From a phage, in sequence record PZ019084.1: 64,000 nucleotides of DNA. One strand, given 5' to 3'. Below the pieces are notes generated by a model, which was not told the DNA's origin, did not search any database, and saw only the letters and a list, made by a program, of their open reading frames with translations. The position numbers were made by a program, and so were the translations under genes. Positions 4,646 through 43,029 of this stretch are shown here, piece by piece (within the stretch, counting starts at the first letter, position 1; every line of letters starts with the position of its first letter).

Positions 4646-5661
4646 TGTGTTGCCTCTACATATAACTGATTTGCATATTGAATAAGTGCTTCGCGGTCAG
4701 AATCAGTGATGTCTGGAATTGTATTAATGTATTCTTCCATCAACGTCTGAAGAGATTGAACTTCAACTTCTTCACTATCATCTGACTCGATAGAGTTATC
4801 AATCTTTGACACAACTCGTAATGAATGCACAACTTTTTCTAGTTCAGATTCGAACTTCGTTAGATTTTTGTCTACCTCAGTTACTATAACACGTACTGAT
4901 AGATTTGTAAAATCTTTATAGTCAATTTTTCCCTTAAATGGATACTGAATTCGACGGTGCCAAGTAGTGTTGTTTGGAATAAATTCCATTCGTTCTGTTT
5001 CTGTATCAAACATCCAGAACCCGCGAGGGTCATTCTCGTCACCTGCAGTTAGTGTCCATGGTGTCCCAATATATCTGACGTTAGCAGCCTCAGAGATAGT
5101 ATGGAAGTGACCAGACCACACCTCTTTATAAGTCTTAAGGAAATCAGGTTCAAGACCGTGAGATTTCATTCCTTTATAAAAATAAAATCCATTCAGTTCC
5201 CAGTGACCAACACAAAAAGAAGCAGATGAAGTTTTGATGTGTTCAAGAATTTCACCAGTATTTTCTTCGCACATCCAAGGAATTAAATCAATCAAACATC
5301 CGTCAAAATCTACTGTAGTAGGCTTATCATATACTTTAACATTAGGATATTTAGCCAAAAGCTCAGTAGAAGCATTTGGAGTTAAAGTATTTTTAAAGTG
5401 CATATCATGGTTTCCTACAACAGTATGTAGGGTAATACCAGCATCATCAAGCATTTGAACTATTTCACGAGCGAACTCCATAGTTTTATGCGTGATTGCT
5501 TTTCGCACATCAAAAATATCGCCGTATTGAATCCATGTAGTAATTCCGTTTTTCTTAGAATATTCTATTGCTTGTTTAATTCCATCCAACTGAATGGATT
5601 GAACCCACTCATCATCGGCTTTAACACCTAAATGCCAATCACCTAAATTTAAAATTTTCAT
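4642..5661 (-). CDS. 47: Recombination endonuclease subunit gp47 (Mre11/SbcD-like phosphoesterase)
   Basis: 339 aa; calcineurin-like phosphoesterase motifs (MKILNLGDWHLG, GDIFD, GNHD, GH.H); same size as T4 gp47. Confidence 0.9.
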   Translation of the reverse strand: MKILNLGDWHLGVKADDEWVQSIQLDGIKQAIEYSKKNGITTWIQYGDIFDVRKAITHKTMEFAREIVQMLDDAGITLHTVVGNHDMHFKNTLTPNASTELLAKYPNVKVYDKPTTVDFDGCLIDLIPWMCEENTGEILEHIKTSSASFCVGHWELNGFYFYKGMKSHGLEPDFLKTYKEVWSGHFHTISEAANVRYIGTPWTLTAGDENDPRGFWMFDTETERMEFIPNNTTWHRRIQYPFKGKIDYKDFTNLSVRVIVTEVDKNLTKFESELEKVVHSLRVVSKIDNSIESDDSEEVEVQSLQTLMEEYINTIPDITDSDREALIQYANQLYVEATQ

Positions 5662-5840: not shown

Positions 5841-7040
5841 TTTTGTAATAATGTCAAACTGTTCTTTAAAGCAGAAGCTTGAATCTTGATGCTGATACAA
5901 AAATTCATAAGCTTTTTCGCGTTCACGGTCATAAAGAGCTCGGTCAGATGACAGTTCTTTAATACGCTCAAATGTTGATTCCATGTCATTTTCATCAAAC
6001 CAAACGATACCGCTATCATGAGAAATTAACGGAGTATTATCAACACGGAATTTTAAATTTTCGCCAGTAGATTTCCAAAATACTGGAATTGTTCCACATG
6101 CACCAAGCTCGAGATGAGTATATTCTAAAGAACGTTGTAGATATTTTTTGTCCAACTTACTCAGCTGATAACCAAATCCAGATTTACTCATGCGTTCAAG
6201 CATTTCGCTATTTACATAACGGTCAAGAATTTGCGTTGGCAAATTAGGAGCAATTTTAATTTGGTCTACTTGATGAAGACGATAATACTCGTATGGAATT
6301 CCTTTTTCTTTAATAGGAATGAACGCTGGAGAACGTTCCAGACCTTCCATAATAGTACTTAACCCTGCAGGTTTAAGATGTTTTTCGTGAAAATCAAACA
6401 TCTGATAAAAACCTTTCCATGTAGTAGTACGACCAATCCAACGGTTGATATTCATGTTAATTTCAGAAACATCTTTCCAGTAAGTTGATCGAACCTTCGC
6501 AATATCCATAGGAGGCTGAAAGTTGTATACAGTCGGTGCTTCTTCAATATCATCAAACAGTGAAACAGTTTCTGGATACCATTCTTTCATCAGAACTTTA
6601 TTAAAATCACCATTATCAGAATGACTAAAAATAACATCAGCTCGGCGAACAGTTTCTTCTAATCCCAAATTTCGACGCAAAGAAAGAGAAGAATGGTCAT
6701 GTTGATAAACTACAACACGAACCGAAGGTTTAATGTTATCAATAATTTTTTTATAGTTATTAATAGTGTCTTCTTCGACTGAAGTAGCAGGAACTGAATT
6801 GATAACTAGAATATCACAATCATTTACCAGCTTAAGCGTTTTATCGTATTCTTTTGCCAATAAAACCGGAATTGAAAATGATTTATAATCATGCGCGCAA
6901 TTACGTGTAAATGATTTATCTTTAGCATAAACCAAAGTTACTTCATGACCATTTTTAATAAACCAATCACGCTGCTCAAGAGAAAATTTAGTTACGCCAC
7001 AACCTTCAAGACCTCGAGCCATAAAAATGCATACTTTCAT
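5838..7040 (-). CDS. a-gt: DNA alpha-glucosyltransferase
   Basis: 400 aa, same as T4 AGT; N-terminus CIFMARGLEGCGVTKFSLEQRDWF matches remembered T4 AGT. Confidence 0.85.
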   Translation of the reverse strand: MKVCIFMARGLEGCGVTKFSLEQRDWFIKNGHEVTLVYAKDKSFTRNCAHDYKSFSIPVLLAKEYDKTLKLVNDCDILVINSVPATSVEEDTINNYKKIIDNIKPSVRVVVYQHDHSSLSLRRNLGLEETVRRADVIFSHSDNGDFNKVLMKEWYPETVSLFDDIEEAPTVYNFQPPMDIAKVRSTYWKDVSEINMNINRWIGRTTTWKGFYQMFDFHEKHLKPAGLSTIMEGLERSPAFIPIKEKGIPYEYYRLHQVDQIKIAPNLPTQILDRYVNSEMLERMSKSGFGYQLSKLDKKYLQRSLEYTHLELGACGTIPVFWKSTGENLKFRVDNTPLISHDSGIVWFDENDMESTFERIKELSSDRALYDREREKAYEFLYQHQDSSFCFKEQFDIITK

Positions 7041-27972: not shown

Positions 27973-28160
27973 TATTCTTCTACGTGCTGTTTACGACCTT
28001 TCTTATCAATAAAGGTATATTCAACGAATGTTCCAATATAGTCTTTATCTACATTATGTGGACTATTAATTGGGCATTTAGTACTGCAAATGCGTTCCCA
28101 TTGACGAATAATTTCCACTTTGTTTTTAGGATCAAACGGATGCGGGTAATGTACTTTCAT
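27948..28160 (-). CDS. Hypothetical small protein
   Basis: 70 aa ORF. Confidence 0.35.
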   Translation of the reverse strand: MKVHYPHPFDPKNKVEIIRQWERICSTKCPINSPHNVDKDYIGTFVEYTFIDKKGRKQHVEEYCLKVTWL

Positions 28161-28611
28161 AATCCACCACTATTAAATCAATATCAGGAGTAAACATGTC
28201 AATTAATTTAGAAACCTTATCCCAATCACCACCAGCAATACCGCAACCTATGCGTGGAATGTAAATTACTGGTTTAAACAAAAGGGTTTCTGCCTGTAGA
28301 TTTAATTCTATCATGCAGTTTACTAAAGCACCATAATCAAGATTAGGACCCGGTTCGTATTGCGTATACAGGTTATAGCATATACCAAATCCTGTAGGAC
28401 TATGTTTAAAAACAATAGACATATCGCCTAATTTATCACGAGAACCGTACTCGGTAGTGGTTTTATCTATTTCTAAAATTTTGGGATAGGCTCTTGCTAA
28501 TTGACCTGCTACGCCAGAGCCCATTGTGTGGAAGCAATTGCACCCGTGCGCAATAATATTACCTTGAAGAAATAGGGCGACAATATCGCCCTTGATATAT
28601 TTTACAATCAT
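28132..28611 (-). CDS. Macro-domain protein (ADP-ribose binding/processing fold)
   Basis: 159 aa; IIAHGCNCFHTMGSGVAGQLA resembles the macro-domain NAAN...GGGVxG motif; later glycine-rich IGCGIAGGDWD segment. Confidence 0.55.
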   Translation of the reverse strand: MIVKYIKGDIVALFLQGNIIAHGCNCFHTMGSGVAGQLARAYPKILEIDKTTTEYGSRDKLGDMSIVFKHSPTGFGICYNLYTQYEPGPNLDYGALVNCMIELNLQAETLLFKPVIYIPRIGCGIAGGDWDKVSKLIDMFTPDIDLIVVDYESTLPASV

Positions 28612-28955: not shown

Positions 28956-29493
28956 TTACTATTTCCAAAAGTTTATTATTTTTAAGGTAGTTAGCCTTTT
29001 CTAGGACTTCAGAAGCATATTTAGAACCTGCTTTAACATTCCATCCCGAATTATAAGAGGATATTGCTTTTCTTATATCACCCTTATGTATATTTAACCA
29101 ATAAGAAAGTTCAATGTACGCCCAGGAAGCTGAATTGGACCGTTTATTCAACATTCTTTTTATTTCAGCATCAGTCATATTATAACCAAGTTCCTTAACT
29201 CTTGCTCGCATAGTTGGCAAATAATTTTGGAACATTCCATAGGCATGATGCTTTGGTTTAGATTTTAAATTAACTCCGGCAGAGCTTTCTTGCCATAAAA
29301 TAGCAGCCATTATATGACCTAATCCGCTCTTGTGGATGTTTTTGTGTGTTTTATATTTTCCATCCTTAGAAAATTGTTCCCCGAATTGATACGCGTAACG
29401 CATGTTATCGAGTTGGACATTACTGAAAGTATGCTCGGAGCTATGCGCCATCATTGAAATGGCCAATAGACCAGCGAGTAGTGCTTTTCTCAT
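28948..29493 (-). CDS. Secreted lytic-transglycosylase-like protein
   Basis: 181 aa; signal peptide MRKALLAGLLAISMMAHS; SLT-like segment AAILWQESSAGVN...YGMFQ. Confidence 0.5.
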   Translation of the reverse strand: MRKALLAGLLAISMMAHSSEHTFSNVQLDNMRYAYQFGEQFSKDGKYKTHKNIHKSGLGHIMAAILWQESSAGVNLKSKPKHHAYGMFQNYLPTMRARVKELGYNMTDAEIKRMLNKRSNSASWAYIELSYWLNIHKGDIRKAISSYNSGWNVKAGSKYASEVLEKANYLKNNKLLEIVND

Positions 29494-29500
29494 GCTTACC

Positions 29501-29962
29501 TCATTGAGTTTTAATTACTGCTTTAGAAGCCTTTCCCGGTAAACGACGACTGTTGATAATTGCCATCCTGCATTGAAGCGACGGGTCTTTGAACTTCGCA
29601 TTAGGTTTACAAACTGTAAATCCAAGCCAAAGATTTCCATCTGTGATTTCTAAACGCCCAGGACGATATTCAACCCCATCAATAAAATCCTCGTCAATGT
29701 CAGGACGCGGAGGCATACTCAGGAATTCATTAACTTCTAAAACATGGTCTTTTATTTTGTGGAATAATTCAAAAACATATGTCTCATCAATCTCCCGTTG
29801 AATTGCACGATCAAGGAGATGCTGAGAATATTTTAGATGAAACGATGAGACCCCTGCTGCTTTTGATGCCTCACGAATCTCATTGTTAATTTGACGAAAC
29901 TCCGACTCAAAGTGACGACGAAGCTTATTTCGACGGATAAAAACTTCTGTGTTGATAGTCAT
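29501..29962 (-). CDS. regB: Endoribonuclease RegB
   Basis: 153 aa, same length as T4 RegB; GAGGAG RBS; early promoter immediately upstream. Confidence 0.85.
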   Translation of the reverse strand: MTINTEVFIRRNKLRRHFESEFRQINNEIREASKAAGVSSFHLKYSQHLLDRAIQREIDETYVFELFHKIKDHVLEVNEFLSMPPRPDIDEDFIDGVEYRPGRLEITDGNLWLGFTVCKPNAKFKDPSLQCRMAIINSRRLPGKASKAVIKTQ

Positions 29963-29989
29963 GTTATTCTCCTCTTAACTGATAGAAAA

Positions 29990-30019
29990 ATTATACCACA
30001 GTCAAGAGGAAAAGTAAAC
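29990..30019 (-). promoter_or_regulatory. T4-type early promoter (regB)
   Basis: Plus strand attataccaca...aaagtaaac. Confidence 0.55.
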
Positions 30020-30021
30020 AG

Positions 30022-30342
30022 TTATTCTTTAAATCTAATCAATTTATTCATAGACTTTGTAACTTCTGCACGAACCTCATGTAAGTTTTTAAGCTGTTCA
30101 AGACGCTGCTCGTAGTAAGCAATTTCATCTTCTTCGAGACAGTCTTGTGAATCTTCTTTAAGATAACGTGCATAATCCTGGAAAGCTTTACGGACTACTT
30201 CTTGGAAGTCATCAAGACTTTGAATTTTCTTAGGAGCAACAGATACACGACGAGGGGCAGTATAATACTCATAACCAAACCCTGCGCTTAATTGAGCCAT
30301 TAATATTTTTCCTCTGGTTGGAACACAGCACGACAAGCCCAC
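30022..30342 (-). CDS. Hypothetical protein
   Basis: 106 aa ORF. Confidence 0.4.
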
Positions 30343-30566
30343 ATACTAGCTTCTTTGAGTTTCGTTTTAGCAATAGTTAACTGATCGAGGCTTTCAGCAT
30401 AATTCTTTGCGAATTCGCAGTCTTCACAATTATCTAGTGCTTCCCAGAATTCGTCATATAAAGCGTCAAAGATAAGTCCTAAACGAACTTCAGCGTCTTT
30501 GATAGCATTCACTTTACCGATTTTCTCTTCAGTGTGCGGCTTATAACCTTTAATGTCTTCAATCAT
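30300..30566 (-). CDS. Hypothetical small acidic protein (positional candidate for T4 vs.4)
   Basis: 88 aa ORF; assignment by gene order only. Confidence 0.4.
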
Positions 30567-30780
30567 ATTCTACTTCCTCACCAGTACATAAATCATATTC
30601 AACTAAACGAATAGGTTCATGAATGCCATATCCTTGAACAGAAATTTCTGTCGTAGGATAAATTCCATCAATATCACCCATGGTCCACGCTTCATTAAAT
30701 TGCTGTTCGCCTGAATTACTAAACCACTCGGCGAAAGCATTTAACACATCTTTAGAACCTTCAATAATTATCTTTGCCAT
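30559..30780 (-). CDS. Hypothetical small protein
   Basis: 73 aa ORF. Confidence 0.4.
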   Translation of the reverse strand: MAKIIIEGSKDVLNAFAEWFSNSGEQQFNEAWTMGDIDGIYPTTEISVQGYGIHEPIRLVEYDLCTGEEVEYD

Positions 30781-31142
30781 TACAAGCTCTCAGTAAAGGT
30801 ACGAGCGATAACGTCGCGCTGCTGTTCCGGAGTCAGAGAGTTAAAGCGAACTGCATAACCGGATACACGGATGGTCAGCTGCGGATATTTTTCCGGATGC
30901 TTAACTGCATCTTCCAGAGTTTCACGACGCAGAACGTTAACGTTCAGGTGTTGACCACCTTCAATTTTAACTGTAGGCTGTTGTTCAATTTCAATTTCAC
31001 GGGTGTGCAAACCGTAGAAAATTTCTGGGTCTACAAAAGAGTCCTCTTTAAAAGTTTTAGAGACAATAATTCGTGCCTGAATACCATCTTCAAAATAAAT
31101 AGTACCTTTATGTGTGCCTTCAAGAATTTGATATGCTTTCAT
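30780..31142 (-). CDS. Autonomous glycyl-radical cofactor (GrcA/YfiD-like)
   Basis: 120 aa; C-terminal [60 protein letters not shown] matches my memory of E. coli GrcA, including the RVSGY radical motif. Confidence 0.85.
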
Positions 31143-31148
31143 ATAACC

Positions 31149-31481
31149 TCAATTAGAAAATAAATTTATCCAAGACTGTTCTTTAATTAAAAATGGCTCA
31201 GAATCATATGCCATTAAACTTTGGGTGATTAGTCCTTTAAAAGGCCCATCAATAAATTCCATGGTAAAATATGGAATTTTATTCATTAATCTTGCATTAG
31301 GAGCAGTGCACAAAACTCTGCATCCTTTGAATACGCCTTTTTGTAATTTGTATTGCTTAGGATAAAATTCGCTCAAGACGTTGTTATTTGCCAAAATTTC
31401 AAAATGATTCACCAATTTATTTTTAATAGTTTTTGGCGAAAAATAAAGATATTCGAAAAGTTGCGTATCTGTCATCATTGC
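31149..31481 (-). CDS. Hypothetical protein
   Basis: Start set at internal MMTDTQLFEYL to avoid a 55 nt overlap with the upstream gene. Confidence 0.35.
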   Translation of the reverse strand, partial: AMMTDTQLFEYLYFSPKTIKNKLVNHFEILANNNVLSEFYPKQYKLQKGVFKGCRVLCTAPNARLMNKIPYFTMEFIDGPFKGLITQSLMAYDSEPFLIKEQSWINLFSN

Positions 31482-32062
31482 ATTCCAATTACGAAAAACT
31501 GTGGACGAGTAATACCACCAATGCAACATTTACTATTGCAGCAGTGTTGCACAGTTTCAATATGAATATCGTAAATTTTATCCATATCAGGAGATTTAAC
31601 AGGCTCATCGATTATATACAAGATTCGAGAAAGCGATAAACCTCTGAACTTGCTACCTCTATTACCAACAAAACTACGGACAGAATCGGTAAATAAGCGA
31701 AATCGAATATCATCGCTAGAATAACGAGAAAATTCTTTTTTAATGTGGCCCGCAGAAATTTTAGCGTAAGCTGAAGTATTAGAAAGAACAATAACTGTTC
31801 CACCGTCATACAGCCAATTAGCAGCAAAATTAGTCACAGCAGTTGATTTACCAGATTGGCGTCCACCATCTAGTCGAAGTGTACAATATTGTTTAAGCAA
31901 GTCTTCAAATGGTGGGATATAATCGTTTTTACAAATTTCTTCTACTCTAGCATCAGAATGGTGTGTAAAAGCATTCATCAGGGATAGATAAGGACCAGTT
32001 AAAAATGTTCTCATTTTATTCTCTCTAAATTTGGGCCATTCCATGGCGCATGAATTGTCCAT
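31475..32062 (-). CDS. Small P-loop NTPase
   Basis: Walker A GGRQSGKST and Walker B LYIIDEP; true start may be the MRTFLTG Met at 32014 (GAGAGAA RBS). Confidence 0.5.
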   Translation of the reverse strand: MDNSCAMEWPKFRENKMRTFLTGPYLSLMNAFTHHSDARVEEICKNDYIPPFEDLLKQYCTLRLDGGRQSGKSTAVTNFAANWLYDGGTVIVLSNTSAYAKISAGHIKKEFSRYSSDDIRFRLFTDSVRSFVGNRGSKFRGLSLSRILYIIDEPVKSPDMDKIYDIHIETVQHCCNSKCCIGGITRPQFFVIGMQ

Positions 32063-32167
32063 TTCTGTATTTACCCATTACCGCACTTGGGCTCGACCTT
32101 ATTACAGGTTGGCGGGAATCCCTCATAGAATCATGAGGTCCAGCTTGTTCCCATATTTCTTATTTGC

Positions 32168-32641
32168 TTATTTGAATGATTTGACGTACTGAATAGAGCC
32201 TTTGCTATTCACGAAAGCGATTTTACCATTTTTATTATACATGGTAGCAGTACGCTGATAACCATAAGTTTGCTTACCAGATTGATAACCAACTAATGCA
32301 AAATTATCTTCACCCATTTTATTCTGTTTAGCGCGGATGCGTTCATGACCGTGTGCCATAAGAACCTTAGCGTCGCCAGTTGCAATGGATCTACGAGTTT
32401 TTTCATCTTCAACTGTATTAACAAAATCGTCAAATGAATCAAATTTAGCATGGGATTTATTATACAGTTTTCCATCTACTGCATAATTATATCCTTGTAC
32501 ATCCATCTCAACTTCTGTACCGTCATCCAATACAGCAGTGATTTTTTGACCTTTTTTAAATTTCAAAAGATCAGTAAAAGATTCAGCAATAATTTGAGAA
32601 TTAATAGCTGCTTCAGTAATAAATTCTTGGTATGTTTTCAT
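32168..32641 (-). CDS. Internal protein with capsid targeting sequence (ipII locus)
   Basis: 157 aa; N-terminus MKTYQEFITEA is the T4 CTS pattern; located between ipIII and the position where denV would be. Confidence 0.6.
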   Translation of the reverse strand: MKTYQEFITEAAINSQIIAESFTDLLKFKKGQKITAVLDDGTEVEMDVQGYNYAVDGKLYNKSHAKFDSFDDFVNTVEDEKTRRSIATGDAKVLMAHGHERIRAKQNKMGEDNFALVGYQSGKQTYGYQRTATMYNKNGKIAFVNSKGSIQYVKSFK

Positions 32642-32747
32642 GTATATCCTTTAAATGTAAATAATTTTATTCTTTAAGTTTGGGACAATTCACACATGAA
32701 TTGTCCATTTCTGTATTTATCTATTACCGAGTTCGGACTTGGCTTTA

Positions 32748-33326
32748 TTAATTACCACGGGCTGCATTAGCAACGGCGTAAGCATACTGAACATTAGCGT
32801 CCTTAAACGTACCTTTAGAGGTATCTATTTCTGCCTTAAAGCCGCCTTTAGCCATAACATCAGCAAATTCTTTACGGAAGGCCATTGCATCAAGACCTTT
32901 CCATGATGATTTATGCTTGGCGAATTCAAGACCAGCGTAGTTGACAGCCTTAGCTAATTTATTATCAATAACCCATTTACCAGCTTTAGGCACAAACACC
33001 GGGCCTTTCTGTTTAGAGAATAGTTTTAAATTCCAGCGACGAAGGTCACCGTCAGCTTTAACAAAAGCTGCATCCAAGTTACTAGCAACAACATCTTGAA
33101 TATGGCCAAATTTAAGCCCATCAACTTCAATATTTAGATCAGTACGCCAGCGAAGTCCTTCCCAAGCGAAAGCTTTAAAGTCGGAAGCTTTTGTGGCTAG
33201 ATATCGTTCAAGTGGAGCAGTTTTAGGGTCAAAGCCGTTTCCACCACGATAGTTCCACTCGTCCTTATTAATGCCTTTGGCCTTTTCCGCAGAAGCTTCA
33301 GCGATAAATTCTTTATACGTTTTCAT
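32748..33326 (-). CDS. ipIII: Internal protein III
   Basis: 192 aa; N-terminal CTS MKTYKEFIAEA; position next to e and size match T4 IPIII. Confidence 0.75.
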   Translation of the reverse strand: MKTYKEFIAEASAEKAKGINKDEWNYRGGNGFDPKTAPLERYLATKASDFKAFAWEGLRWRTDLNIEVDGLKFGHIQDVVASNLDAAFVKADGDLRRWNLKLFSKQKGPVFVPKAGKWVIDNKLAKAVNYAGLEFAKHKSSWKGLDAMAFRKEFADVMAKGGFKAEIDTSKGTFKDANVQYAYAVANAARGN

Positions 33327-33361
33327 GTGTTTCCTTTAAATATTTTAATTAGTAACTATGA

Positions 33362-33393
33362 ATATACTATCACAGTTCTAGGAGAAAGTAAAC
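33362..33393 (-). promoter_or_regulatory. T4-type early promoter
   Basis: Plus strand atatactatcaca...aaagtaaacaac. Confidence 0.55.
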
Positions 33394-33397
33394 AACT

Positions 33398-33928
<531 letters not shown>

Positions 33929-37105: not shown

Positions 37106-37438
37106 TTAATTTTTCCAACTTAACAACTTGTAGTGTCCTTCATTCATACGTGGTTTATCCCAAGAAATACTAATATATGATTCACTGTCAATAGAAGTCG
37201 CCGGGTTTTTCTCTACCGTAAGACCTTCACTTTCCAGCCATTCAATAGTATTTGCGCATAAATCGGAAGAACACCTCATCGGAAACCGGCAAGATTTTTC
37301 ACCTTTAGATGCAGCGTTATACATCTTTTCTAAAATACGCTTTTGCACGTTTTTAAAAATAGTTTCAGCGGATTCTTCAGATTTTTTATTCAGTTCAATA
37401 TAAAGACTCATAACATTCTTCTCATTAATAGGGCTCAT
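37106..37438 (-). CDS. Hypothetical protein
   Basis: 110 aa ORF. Confidence 0.4.
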   Translation of the reverse strand: MSPINEKNVMSLYIELNKKSEESAETIFKNVQKRILEKMYNAASKGEKSCRFPMRCSSDLCANTIEWLESEGLTVEKNPATSIDSESYISISWDKPRMNEGHYKLLSWKN

Positions 37439-37466
37439 AATATCTCAATCATGAGCCTGTGTAAAC

Positions 37467-37742
37467 TTATTTCATATTATTGAAATATTCTTCTGCGATT
37501 TCGTCGTTATCATGGTAAACTTTAGAAGACAGTTTAACATAACCTTCAGCAGTGAACATGTTAATCACAACCTTTACAGTATACCACTGACCGTCTTCAT
37601 TACCCATTACTGCGTAAGTTTCAAACATCGGATGGTCAGGACCGATAACTTTAATATCATTCACTGTACGACCGAAATCTTCTGAAACGCATTTCATAAA
37701 GAAGTTGAACAGTTCGCCGTAATTATCCATTTTATTCTCCAA
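37467..37742 (-). CDS. Hypothetical protein
   Basis: 91 aa ORF downstream of an early promoter. Confidence 0.4.
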   Translation of the reverse strand: MENKMDNYGELFNFFMKCVSEDFGRTVNDIKVIGPDHPMFETYAVMGNEDGQWYTVKVVINMFTAEGYVKLSSKVYHDNDEIAEEYFNNMK

Positions 37743-37773
37743 GTTGTTTTCAGTATCAGTAGTTGATAGTTGT

Positions 37774-37804
37774 ATAGTACCATGGAAGAACAGAGATGTA
37801 AACC
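37774..37804 (-). promoter_or_regulatory. T4-type early promoter
   Basis: Plus strand tatagtacca...gatgtaaaccgttttgtgaaaaaa. Confidence 0.6.
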
Positions 37805-37941
37805 GTTTTGTGAAAAAATTTTAAAAATTTTTAGGGAATTCTAGGGCAGGGAGGGGCAATTAAAAGATAGGATAATATATTATAAAGGGTAGAAACTAAA
37901 TGATGCCTAGAGAGGTCCAGAAAGGCCTAGATGCCAAAAAG

Positions 37942-37960
37942 CCCTATCATTTAGATAGGG
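37942..37960 (-). terminator. Hairpin plus U-run (intrinsic terminator)
   Basis: Minus strand ccctatctaaatgatagggcTTTTTgg just downstream of ORF 37969-38532. Confidence 0.55.
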
Positions 37961-37968
37961 ATTTAAAA

Positions 37969-38532
37969 TTATTTATCTAGTTTAGTTATTATAGCTTCTG
38001 CGGCAGCTTTTAGCTTAGATGCGGTGTTAATACGATTTTTAATTTCAGTATACGCATCGCCAAGAACATCAAGGCTATCAGAATAAACACTTACACTATT
38101 GCGTTCGCTATTTGAAATAGAACCTTTAGTTTTACGATCAAAATCGGTGTACACGTCTTGAAGATCACGGGCTGCCTTCTTTGCATCATCCAATGCGTCA
38201 AGAGCTTTATTCAAAGCATTAACGTATTTTTTAGTGTCAAACATATTCTTAGAAATTTTAACAGGTGCGCGTTCAGGAGTAGCTAATGCAGATTTAGGAA
38301 CCTGAGCGCCAGATGCCAATTTCTTAGAAATTTTGAAAAACGCTTTATTGAATTTATTTTCTTGACTCATCGTAAAAGAACTATTATCGATGTTGTACAT
38401 TTCAATAGCTTTAGCTTTCCACTTAAGAAAATTGCCGCGGTCTTTTGGGTCCAAGTGGAAGAATACTTTAGTAAGATCTGCTTCAGATGGTAATTTTGCT
38501 GCTTCGGTTAAAAATTCGGCATAGGTTTTCAT
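37969..38532 (-). CDS. Candidate capsid-targeted internal protein (CTS-like N-terminus)
   Basis: 187 aa; N-terminus MKTYAEFLTEAAK resembles the CTS of ipII/ipIII; lysine/alanine-rich. Confidence 0.5.
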   Translation of the reverse strand: MKTYAEFLTEAAKLPSEADLTKVFFHLDPKDRGNFLKWKAKAIEMYNIDNSSFTMSQENKFNKAFFKISKKLASGAQVPKSALATPERAPVKISKNMFDTKKYVNALNKALDALDDAKKAARDLQDVYTDFDRKTKGSISNSERNSVSVYSDSLDVLGDAYTEIKNRINTASKLKAAAEAIITKLDK

Positions 38533-38627
38533 TTAAAATCCTTGAAATAATTTATCAGTTGGTTATTAATTATTTATTACTTTGTTATTATCCGTAACAG
38601 CATTCTCTATGTGATTCAAACTAAAAA

Positions 38628-38650
38628 GCCCCAACCTTTCGGTCGGGGCT
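38628..38650 (-). terminator. Hairpin plus U-run (intrinsic terminator)
   Basis: Minus strand agccccgaccgaaaggttggggcTTTTTag. Confidence 0.6.
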
Positions 38651-38657
38651 AAGAATG

Positions 38658-39131
38658 TTATTTGATTTGTTTAGCAGACCAAATGCGGTCTTTAATAATT
38701 TTTTGGATGTCTTCAACATACTCAAGAGAGTGAACATGTGGATTATCTTTGAAACTATAAGCACGGGCTAACTTTTGGCCTTCGGTTTTGATTACTAAAA
38801 GCTCTTTAAGGATAGCTTCATATTTAGCGATAATTCCTTTAACGATATTTTTTTCTTGTGCAGCTTTAGGATCTGCTTTAGGAGCAGGTTTACCCGAAGC
38901 CTTTGCAAAAGCAGCACCAGTAGCAACTAAACTTTTCCAGGCCATACTAACCGCATTTCCCGTAAATCCTTCTGCTTTCATGTCGCGAGCAAATTGGAAT
39001 CGTGATTCGTCAGAAGCATCTTTATAGGAATATTTACCCGCTGCAATGGCTGCTTTTGCGACAGCTTGAATTTCGGTGCTAGATGCTTCATTTAACACCG
39101 CTTCATTTAAAAATTGAGCATATGATTTCAT
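38658..39131 (-). CDS. Candidate capsid-targeted internal protein (CTS-like N-terminus)
   Basis: 157 aa; N-terminus MKSYAQFLNEAVLNEA resembles the CTS; late promoter TATAAATA 40 nt upstream. Confidence 0.5.
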   Translation of the reverse strand: MKSYAQFLNEAVLNEASSTEIQAVAKAAIAAGKYSYKDASDESRFQFARDMKAEGFTGNAVSMAWKSLVATGAAFAKASGKPAPKADPKAAQEKNIVKGIIAKYEAILKELLVIKTEGQKLARAYSFKDNPHVHSLEYVEDIQKIIKDRIWSAKQIK

Positions 39132-39171
39132 CTTATTTCCTGTTTTAATTCGTAGATTTAATATACTACTA

Positions 39172-39179
39172 TATTTATA
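39172..39179 (-). promoter_or_regulatory. Late promoter (TATAAATA)
   Basis: Plus strand tatttata = TATAAATA on coding strand, between terminator hairpin and ORF 38658-39131. Confidence 0.6.
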
Positions 39180-39186
39180 CTAAAAA

Positions 39187-39208
39187 GCCCCGACCTTTCG
39201 GTCGGGGC
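39187..39208 (-). terminator. Hairpin plus U-run (intrinsic terminator)
   Basis: Minus strand gccccgaccgaaaggtcggggcTTTTTa, downstream of the stable-RNA/tRNA region. Confidence 0.6.
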
Positions 39209-39258
39209 TAAGCCTTGCGGCAACCTTGTCGGGGTTCCACCTGCTAAGGCAAGTGTTT

Positions 39259-39420
39259 GTACGAAACGCCGGGATTCGAACCCGGTTATTAAGCAGTTGA
39301 CGCTACTCAATATTTTTAAAAGGCCATATCTCGACCATATCCGAACGTTCCGTCAAAAACGCTACTCGGCTTACGGCAAAGATATTTCCTCGAATCGATA
39401 ATTCTGTGCGCCGTTTCTGC
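39259..39420 (-). ncRNA. Candidate stable RNA with tRNA-like 3-prime domain (T4 species 1/2-like)
   Basis: Minus strand contains ACCGGGTTCGAATCCCGG (T-arm-like) followed by CGTTTCG pairing with AGAAACG about 150 nt upstream; too long for a tRNA, no ORF. Confidence 0.35.
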
Positions 39421-39426
39421 TGTGAT

Positions 39427-39475
39427 GTAAGGGGACATTAACAGATCGTAAAGATTTGTTAATGCCAGTCCTTAC
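39427..39475 (-). ncRNA. Extended imperfect hairpin, possible second small stable RNA
   Basis: Nested inverted repeats gtaagg/ccttac and cattaaca/tgttaatg in a non-coding stretch upstream of the tRNA-like RNA. Confidence 0.3.
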
Positions 39476-39520
39476 CCAGGGAACATCAGTCCGACGACTT
39501 ACCGGTAGCGACCCGGTTTC

Positions 39521-39871
39521 TTAATATTCTTTTAAAGCATTAATCTGTTCACGACGTTTACGCCATAAATCAATTACTTCATACGCAGATTCAGCATTTC
39601 GAATTGGACGGCATTTATATAAAGACTTATGATTTTGATATTGTGTAGATAACGGAATTTTATCTAAAAGGTCTTTACGTTCAAAGTATTCGTAACCATC
39701 TAAGCCAAATGAACGATTTTTGAGAAATTGCCAATGACCAAATTCGTTTTGAATATAAATATAATCCGCGTGTTGATAAAGTAAATTAATTTCACGAAAT
39801 GAGATATGTTTTTCATATTCATTGAAGTAAAATGTTAAATCATGAACTACTAAATAAACATTACCTTTCAT
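39521..39871 (-). CDS. Hypothetical protein embedded in the tRNA/stable-RNA region
   Basis: 116 aa ORF between tRNA-Arg and the stable-RNA region; no recognisable motif. Confidence 0.4.
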   Translation of the reverse strand: MKGNVYLVVHDLTFYFNEYEKHISFREINLLYQHADYIYIQNEFGHWQFLKNRSFGLDGYEYFERKDLLDKIPLSTQYQNHKSLYKCRPIRNAESAYEVIDLWRKRREQINALKEY

Positions 39872-39889: not shown

Positions 39890-39965
39890 TGGTCGAGGCA
39901 GTAGGGATCGAACCTACGACCTAGGACTTAGAAGGTCCTTGCTCTTCCTTCTGAGCTATGCCCCG
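39890..39965 (-). tRNA. tRNA-Arg (anticodon TCT)
   Basis: Minus strand folds as cloverleaf: acceptor CGGGGCA/TGCCTCG, anticodon loop CTTCTAA, T-arm GGTTCGATCC, CCA encoded. Confidence 0.8.
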
Positions 39966-40046
39966 TAATTGGGGTGACCGATGGGAGTCGAACCCATGAC
40001 TACGAGAATCACAATCTCGAGTTCTACCAACTGAACTACGGCCACA
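39966..40046 (-). tRNA. tRNA-His (anticodon GTG)
   Basis: Acceptor GTGGCCG/CGGTCAC, D-arm GTTCAGTTGGTAGAAC, anticodon loop TTGTGAT, T-arm GGGTTCGACTCCC, CCA encoded; no encoded G-1. The tRNA itself is approximately 39971-40046. Confidence 0.6.
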
Positions 40047-40159
40047 TTAATACCTACTCCAACAATCAAGATGTCTTCACACGAAATTAAGAGAAGAGTG
40101 ATCAGTTCAACCCCTATAATCGCGTCAAGTAGATATTAATGTGACAGTTGTCACAAATT

Positions 40160-40234
40160 TGGCGGACGTGATAGGATTCGAACCTATAACCAATCGCTTA
40201 ACAGGCGATCGCTCTGCCATTGAGCTACACATCC
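40160..40234 (-). tRNA. tRNA-Asn (anticodon GTT)
   Basis: Acceptor GGATGTG/CACGTCC, anticodon stem ATCGC/GCGAT with loop CTGTTAA, T-arm AGGTTCGAATCCT, CCA encoded. Confidence 0.7.
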
Positions 40235-40238
40235 AAAT

Positions 40239-40325
40239 TGGTGGGGAGTGATGGAGTCGAACCACCCGAGTCGCAATGACAATGGATTTACAGTCCACAC
40301 CGCTACCTCTACGGGATAACTCCCC
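40239..40325 (-). tRNA. tRNA-Tyr (anticodon GTA), long variable arm
   Basis: Acceptor GGGGAGT/ACTCCCC, anticodon loop CTGTAAA, long variable arm, T-arm GGTGGTTCGACTCCATC, CCA encoded. Confidence 0.65.
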
Positions 40326-40338
40326 TTAATTCTTAATT

Positions 40339-40413
40339 TGGTGGCCCTGGGTGGAATTGAACCACCATCTGGCGATTATGAGTCGCTTGCTTGAACCTTC
40401 CAGCTACAGGGCC
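40339..40413 (-). tRNA. tRNA with CAT anticodon (Ile, as in T4, or Met)
   Basis: Acceptor GGCCCTG/CAGGGCC, anticodon loop CTCATAA, T-arm GGTGGTTCAATTCCACC, CCA encoded; position matches T4 tRNA-Ile. Confidence 0.65.
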
Positions 40414-40414
40414 T

Positions 40415-40490
40415 TGGTGCTGATTGACGGAATCGAACCGCCGACCTTCTCATTACAAGTGAGTTGCTCTACCTACTGAGCTAAATCAGC
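40415..40490 (-). tRNA. tRNA-Thr (anticodon TGT)
   Basis: Acceptor GCTGATT/AATCAGC, D-arm GCTCAGTAGGTAGAGC, anticodon loop CTTGTAA, T-arm GGCGGTTCGATTCCGTC, CCA encoded. Confidence 0.8.
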
Positions 40491-40495
40491 AAAAC

Positions 40496-40585
40496 TGGCG
40501 GAGGCGATAGGATTTGAACCTATGAGTCGCCGGAGCGACTGCCGGTTTTCAAGACCGGTGCATTAAACCACTCTGCCACGCCTCC
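40496..40585 (-). tRNA. tRNA-Ser (anticodon TGA), long variable arm
   Basis: Acceptor GGAGGCG/CGCCTCC, anticodon stem CCGGT/ACCGG with loop CTTGAAA, long variable arm, T-arm AGGTTCAAATCCT. Confidence 0.8.
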
Positions 40586-40587
40586 AG

Positions 40588-40661
40588 TCTCCATACAAGG
40601 ATTTGAACCTTGGACCTCCTGATCCCAAATCAGGCGCTCTACCAAACTGAGCTACACGGAG
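40588..40661 (-). tRNA. tRNA-Pro (anticodon TGG), CCA not encoded
   Basis: Acceptor CTCCGTG/TATGGAG, anticodon stem CCTGA/TCAGG with loop TTTGGGA, T-arm AAGGTTCAAATCCTT. Confidence 0.75.
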
Positions 40662-40671
40662 TAAATTAAAT

Positions 40672-40745
<74 letters not shown>

Positions 40746-40750
40746 AAATT

Positions 40751-40837
40751 TGGTGCGAGAAGTGGGACTCGAACCCACAAGGAAATCATTCCGCAGCATT
40801 TTAAGTGCTGTGCCTTTACCAATTTGACCATTCTCGC
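40751..40837 (-). tRNA. tRNA-Leu (anticodon TAA), long variable arm
   Basis: Acceptor GCGAGAA/TTCTCGC, anticodon loop CTTAAAA, long variable arm, T-arm GGGTTCGAGTCCC, CCA encoded. Confidence 0.8.
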
Positions 40838-40838
40838 G

Positions 40839-40911
40839 CTGGGAATAAAGGACTTGAACCTTTGCATCCTGGAATCAAAATCCAGTGCCTTACCAACTTG
40901 GCTAATTCCCA
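40839..40911 (-). tRNA. tRNA-Gln (anticodon TTG), CCA not encoded
   Basis: Acceptor TGGGAAT/ATTCCCA, anticodon stem CTGGA/TCCAG with loop TTTTGAT, T-arm AAGGTTCAAGTCCTT. Confidence 0.75.
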
Positions 40912-41972: not shown

Positions 41973-42260
41973 TTACAAAAGATTTTTAGCAATAATCTTG
42001 AGATATGCCGCAGAAATGTGTTTAGCTTTAAACAACGCAGTTTCTTCAGCAGGAGAGATAATGATTGTAGCACCATCCTTTTTAGCAGACCACCCATCAC
42101 CTAGGTAAACAGTACCTTTGATTTCTTCGCCATCAACCAAGCTAATCATTGGTTTACCTTCTCGTCCTTTATTTGCTTTAATAACTTCAGAAGTAAGAGT
42201 AGCTTCAGTAATAGTAGAAACCGGGGTAGTTGTAGAAGTAAATTCTTTGAAAGTTTTCAT
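41973..42260 (-). CDS. Internal protein at the ipI locus (CTS-like N-terminus)
   Basis: 95 aa (same as T4 IPI precursor length); N-terminus MKTFKEFTSTTT; located just upstream of 57B as ipI is in T4. Confidence 0.5.
   Translation of the reverse strand: MKTFKEFTSTTTPVSTITEATLTSEVIKANKGREGKPMISLVDGEEIKGTVYLGDGWSAKKDGATIIISPAEETALFKAKHISAAYLKIIAKNLL

Positions 42261-42332: not shown

Positions 42333-43029
<697 letters not shown>

Follow-up and report, generated by a model that had tools for sequence, protein, structure and literature searches.

The 64,000-nucleotide stretch of phage DNA analysed here (hereafter the window) contains an 88-codon open reading frame (ORF) at 30300-30566, near regB, and a 57B gene at 42333-42788. 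Does this phage carry the anti-CBASS genes of T4, with the short ORF specifying the cyclic-nucleotide sponge Vs.4/Acb2 and 57B the nuclease Acb1? The original prediction had arrived at Vs.4 from position alone and had left the strand of the ORF unstated. Vs.4 of T4 is the protein also known as Acb2, anti-CBASS protein 2 (Jenson et al. 2023; Huiting et al. 2023), which soaks up the cyclic nucleotides that serve as alarm signals in CBASS, a form of bacterial immunity.

Judging from its DNA, the window is derived from a T4-like phage (Tequatrovirus) that is a close relative of T4 but not identical to it. Hundreds of Tequatrovirus records were matched both by a 5-kb piece around the ORF and by a 25-kb piece (20000-44999). 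The nearest deposited relatives are about 96-97% identical at the DNA level, with Escherichia phages ECO07P2, REP4 and vB_EcoM_G50 giving the top matches at this level of identity. When 42 proteins encoded at 58-76 kb in T4 were compared with the window by tblastn, the T4 order was found to be kept, with mobD.2a through gene 3 colinear. The cassette differences within this order are the genes denV, e.7 and segB, which are missing relative to T4.

We examined the ORF at 30300-30566 and its product by comparison with known structures, protein families and T4 itself. The ORF is real and lies on the minus strand, where it runs from ATG to TAA over 88 codons. A search of PDB chains with the 88-residue product returned 7UQ2, whose molecule is named 'Vs.4', with an E value of 1.9e-57 and identity at 88 of 88 positions. 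The next matches, the PaMx33 Acb2 ('p26') structures 8IXZ and 8H2J, were weak (phmmer E of about 0.03) and extended over the full length. The product also matches the Pfam family PF24729 (Acb2_Tad1_hairpin; 'Acb2/Tad1, hairpin domain') with 71.4 bits, well above the gathering score of 27, and an E value of 7.1e-20 over profile positions 1-58 of 58. Alignment of 30300-30566 with T4 Vs.4/Acb2 had been proposed as the check on the original prediction; against the translated T4 vs.4 gene (NC_000866 63078-63344, NP_049728) the two proteins proved identical in all 88 residues (100%). A positional look-alike that is unrelated to Vs.4 is ruled out by the identity to 7UQ2 together with the match to PF24729.

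The arrangement of the surrounding genes was compared with that of T4. The genes vs, vs.1, regB, vs.3, vs.4, vs.5, vs.6, vs.7 and vs.8 follow one another exactly as in T4 (NC_000866), all on the minus strand. The positional landmark of the prediction, the gene for the RegB endoribonuclease, is found at 29501-29962 (minus strand); its product matches Pfam PF10715 (REGB_T4) at 1.4e-68 and is identical to T4 RegB in 152 of 153 residues. Read in the direction of transcription, vs.4 comes before regB, with vs.3 between them, as in T4. The latter gene (30022-30300, minus strand) encodes 92 residues from an ATG at 30300, and its product belongs to phrog_2037 and is 96.7% identical to T4 Vs.3; in Pfam it gave only a match to Tex_N below threshold (19.1 bits, cut-off 32). 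The stop codon of vs.4 and the start codon of vs.3 overlap by 1 nt (TAATG). The identical protein, the PF24729 match and the T4 gene order thus uphold what had been guessed from position: neither a lack of similarity to Acb2 nor a mismatch with the T4 gene order was found. We conclude that 30300-30566 almost certainly encodes Vs.4/Acb2, one of a T4-like pair of anti-CBASS genes in the window.

We considered whether the ORF might have arisen by chance, or be a degraded relic, with no functional protein made from it. It is short, an AT-rich genome yields many short ORFs by chance, and 40 ORFs of at least 30 residues are listed in 4 kb. The substitutions relative to T4 argue otherwise. The DNA of vs.4 differs from that of T4 at 16 of 267 nucleotides (6%), and all 16 differences are synonymous and none non-synonymous (pS 0.32, pN 0), so that the protein is 100% that of T4 Vs.4. 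Such an all-synonymous pattern would have a probability of about 2e-12 if the changes were random. In addition, a Shine-Dalgarno-like GAGGA, read from the sequence at 30575-30579 (minus strand) 8 nt 5' of the vs.4 ATG, is also kept in the alignment with T4 and ECO07P2. Homologues are widespread as well. When the 88-residue protein was searched by tblastn against 50,697 phage records, a Vs.4 homologue was found in 1,232 of them, and full-length homologues in 1,228. At least 99% identity was seen in 122 of the 1,232, T4 and RB55 among them, and a second large group at 60-80% identity comprises phages of Escherichia, Klebsiella, Enterobacter, Citrobacter and other phages. A chance ORF or pseudogene at 30300-30566 is ruled out by the identity to T4 Vs.4 and the exclusively synonymous substitutions, and we assign it practically no probability.

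The synonymous divergence of vs.4 from T4 is the highest among the eight genes compared, with a pS of 0.32 against 0.06-0.23 for the others. The vs.4 allele of this phage is therefore comparatively far from that of T4 as DNA, and its protein is fully conserved. Since the highest pS among its neighbours is combined with no amino-acid change at all, vs.4 is a genuine gene on which purifying selection acts strongly. That Acb2 is fully conserved when about 32% of synonymous sites have diverged is a further, minor sign of tight constraint on the protein. The gene is presumed to be expressed in this phage. A scan of 29300-33500 for sigma-70 consensus sites found 12 promoter-like sites compared with 14.4 expected from shuffled sequence. 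Overall, promoters and terminators in this interval showed no enrichment over shuffles, and the scan is uninformative about transcription either way.

The gene preceding vs.4 differs from its annotated T4 counterpart. In the window, vs.5 is an ORF of 73 codons at 30559-30780 (minus strand) whose product matches phrog_1986 at 9.4e-43 over its full length; the Pfam search of the neighbours gave no match for it. The final 8 nt of vs.5 (ATGATTGA) are shared with the start of vs.4, so that the two genes could be translationally coupled. The T4 reference sequence lacks one C (alignment column 72) that is present in both the window and ECO07P2, and its frame is shifted after residue 17. Consequently, the annotated T4 Vs.5 (58 residues; 5382-5558 of T4 locus L001) agrees with the 73-residue form in the first 17 residues only, and the annotated gene ends 36 nt before vs.4. 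Because 987 of 988 matching phage records, at identities down to 42%, keep the 73-codon frame intact, it seems that vs.5 of the T4 reference has undergone a frameshift or contains a sequencing error. One could go further and speculate that the intact 73-residue Vs.5 is translationally coupled to Acb2 and perhaps works together with it, or is another anti-defence protein that was missed in studies of laboratory T4. Adjacency, overlap and conservation are what would point that way, and we consider this idea improbable.

The key residues of Acb2 were located in the window Vs.4. Y8, K23, D61, T68 and F82 are all present. In the alignment to the PaMx33 Acb2 structures 8H2J and 8IXZ, Y8 corresponds to Y11, K23 to K26, D61 to R67 and T68 to T74. 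In PaMx33 Acb2, Y11 holds the dinucleotide by pi-stacking, and the K26 residues of two protomers form salt bridges with it (PMC10312549); the T4 Acb2 alleles Y8A and F82C have lost binding (PMC12657218). The residues of the cyclic-dinucleotide pocket, the stacking tyrosine Y8 and the salt-bridging lysine K23, are thus both conserved in the window protein.

According to the summary in PMC10449767 of Jenson et al. 2023, T4 Vs.4 came to light when T4 was mutagenised and screened for factors that counteract a type II CBASS. The same summary describes it as binding cGAMP, as a crystal hexamer with three cGAMP and as a cyclic-nucleotide sponge that prevents the activation of CapV. For a sequence identical to that of the window, crystallography and ITC as summarised there have established a hexamer with three cGAMP, bound with high affinity and without degradation (7UQ2; PMC10449767). 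By this identity, nucleotide binding, hexamer formation and an anti-CBASS phenotype would be expected of the window protein too. Vs.4/Acb2 would form hexamers, each of which takes three cyclic dinucleotides (3'3'-cGAMP and related molecules) out of circulation. These would lie between paired protomers, at their N-terminal parts, with Tyr8 stacking on the bases and Lys23 forming salt bridges. Sequestration would hold the free signal at a level too low for CBASS effectors such as CapV to be activated, and with these effectors inactive the infected cell would not die before the phage cycle is completed.

The second pocket of Acb2, which accommodates cyclic trinucleotides, bears on how broad this sponge may be. 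The pocket is not universal in the Acb2 family and depends on R67 and T74 in PaMx33, through which the Acb2 proteins of PaMx33 and JBD67 bind cA3 (PMC10312549). If the window Vs.4 were a broader sponge than T4 Acb2, it would take up cA3 and cAAG in this second pocket as PaMx33 Acb2 does, and T68, the equivalent of T74, is indeed present. However, the window has the combination D61/T68 where PaMx33 has R67/T74, so that the trinucleotide pocket is not found, just as in T4 Acb2. The T4 protein takes up cyclic dinucleotides; it binds neither cA3 nor cAAG, and even a D61R mutant gained no cA3 binding (PMC10312549). Given that T4 Acb2 lacks this activity and has the very sequence of the window protein, a trinucleotide sponge is ruled out, and the broader specificity is exceedingly unlikely. 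D61 and T68 mark the T4 subtype and do not exclude membership of the family. We instead expect Vs.4 of this phage to be a dinucleotide-only sponge, since D61 and T68 are as in T4 Acb2; a protein of the T4 type would bind dinucleotides and leave the trinucleotides cA3 and cAAG unbound.

Carrying vs.4 may come at a cost. T4 Acb2 also sets off Panoptes, a defence system that detects the loss of the decoy 2',3'-c-di-AMP (PMC12657218). It is reasonably probable that vs.4 is a liability in some hosts, where Acb2 would soak up the decoy 2',3'-c-di-AMP and thereby trigger Panoptes (optSE), such that its net effect depends on the defence repertoire of the host. The identity of the window Vs.4 to the T4 protein favours this view. 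It would nevertheless be an addition to the sponge mechanism and not a replacement for it, and the full conservation of the protein at a pS of 0.32 argues that keeping vs.4 is favoured overall.

The second gene in question, 57B (acb1), is located at 42333-42788 (minus strand) and encodes 151 residues of a 2H-phosphoesterase-type nuclease predicted to cleave the cyclic oligonucleotides of CBASS. Its product matches Pfam PF23474 'Anti-CBASS protein Acb1' with 202.7 bits (cut-off 27) and an E value of 2.6e-60 over profile positions 1-144 of 144, and the Acb1 structure PDB 7T26 with an E value of 4e-62. It is identical to residues 2-152 of T4 57B, that is over 151 residues, and the two genes differ by 6 synonymous and 0 non-synonymous substitutions. 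The catalytic HxT/HxT tetrad of Acb1 consists of H44, T46, H113 and T115 in T4 numbering (Hobbs et al. 2022, PMC9117128). This tetrad is intact in the window as H43, T45, H112 and T114. The original prediction had named 57B as Acb1 and had noted that both H-x-T motifs are retained; the Pfam match and the identity to T4 57B agree with the former, and inspection of the catalytic residues with the latter. The product of 42333-42788 is Acb1 (gp57B), and its catalysis, the cleavage of CBASS cyclic oligonucleotides, would be that of the identical T4 protein. This phage carries an anti-CBASS gene pair as in T4, the Acb2 sponge and the Acb1 nuclease, both in their T4 forms.

Directly downstream of 57B is ipI (41973-42260, minus strand), which brings the known anti-defence genes of the window to three. 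Its product, 97.9% identical to T4 IPI, falls in Pfam PF11634 'Nuclease inhibitor from bacteriophage T4'.

Comparison with T4 brought out several further differences in the window. In the vs.8 region (31475-32126, minus strand; 6254-6913 of T4 locus L001), there is an 8-nt indel near the 5' end. T4 has a tandem CTTATAGAG repeat where the window and ECO07P2 have a single copy. As a result, residues 1-32 and 26-219 of T4 Vs.8 are in different frames in the window and the N-termini differ; the longest vs.8 ORF of the window has 195 codons and starts at 32062. In place of denV and ipII stands an ORF of 157 codons at 32168-32641 (minus strand). Its product begins with MKTYQEF like T4 internal proteins and matches Pfam DUF7412 (5.7e-96) and phrog_3155 'internal virion protein' (6e-102). 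No denV homologue was found by tblastn in the whole 64-kb window, and ipII gave only a weak match, 33% over 79 residues, to this internal-virion-protein gene. On the other side of vs.4, the macro-domain protein Tk.4 (28132-28611, minus strand) is about 57-58% identical to T4 Tk.4, compared with 90% for tk.3, 96.5% for vs and 85-99% for the neighbours overall, which suggests that tk.4, possibly a gene for ADP-ribose processing, has been exchanged for another allele.

The tRNA array (39890-40911, minus strand) has 11 genes compared with 8 in T4, with Tyr, Asn and His as the additional ones, and the homing endonuclease gene segB is absent. The array contains Gln, Leu, Gly, Pro, Ser, Thr, a 'Met' with a CAT anticodon, Tyr, Asn, His and Arg. 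From its position, the tRNA with the CAT anticodon is probably the counterpart of T4 tRNA-Ile. Between e.8 and the array, the interval 37106-39871 (minus strand) holds ORFs that are without a counterpart in that part of T4 and without an assigned function. These include two phrog_2280 paralogues (37969-38532 and 38658-39131, minus strand) and a phrog_3355 ORF (39521-39871, minus strand). A 110-codon ORF of phrog_18312 (37106-37438, minus strand) takes the place of e.7.

What the gene pair means for the phage can be anticipated from published work on the identical proteins: it should resist CBASS of the cGAMP type and should be sensitive to Panoptes. Such expectations could be of use when phages are to be selected or engineered for hosts whose defence repertoires are known. 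The two genes had been known before, having been characterised biochemically, structurally and genetically in T4, and nothing about them is new here; beyond correct annotation, the finding has little significance.

The likeness of the two proteins to known systems can be stated precisely. With T4 Vs.4, that is Acb2, the window gene shares every amino acid, its flanks (vs.3 downstream and vs.5 upstream), the single-nucleotide overlap with vs.3 and the ribosome-binding site. It differs in its synonymous changes and in being preceded by an intact vs.5 that overlaps it by 8 nt, whereas T4 vs.5 is annotated with 58 residues. The resemblance to PaMx33 Acb2 (p26; PDB 8H2J, 8IXZ and others) is more distant. 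The two have in common the Pfam family, the hairpin fold family and the dinucleotide pocket, where Y11/K26 of PaMx33 equal Y8/K23, but they are only about 24% identical (PMC10312549), with a phmmer E of 0.03, and R67 of PaMx33 is D61 in the window. The window 57B shares with T4 gp57B, that is Acb1 (NP_049750; homologue structures 7T26 and 7T27), 151 residues, the catalytic tetrad and the place between ipI and 57A. T4 has two tandem ATG codons at the start of the gene and the window only the second; the junction of the 57A stop and the 57B start reads TAATG in the window, whereas the annotated overlap in T4 implies ATGATG. Because the first of these two codons is missing, the product in the window is one residue shorter than that of T4 and its numbering is lower by one.
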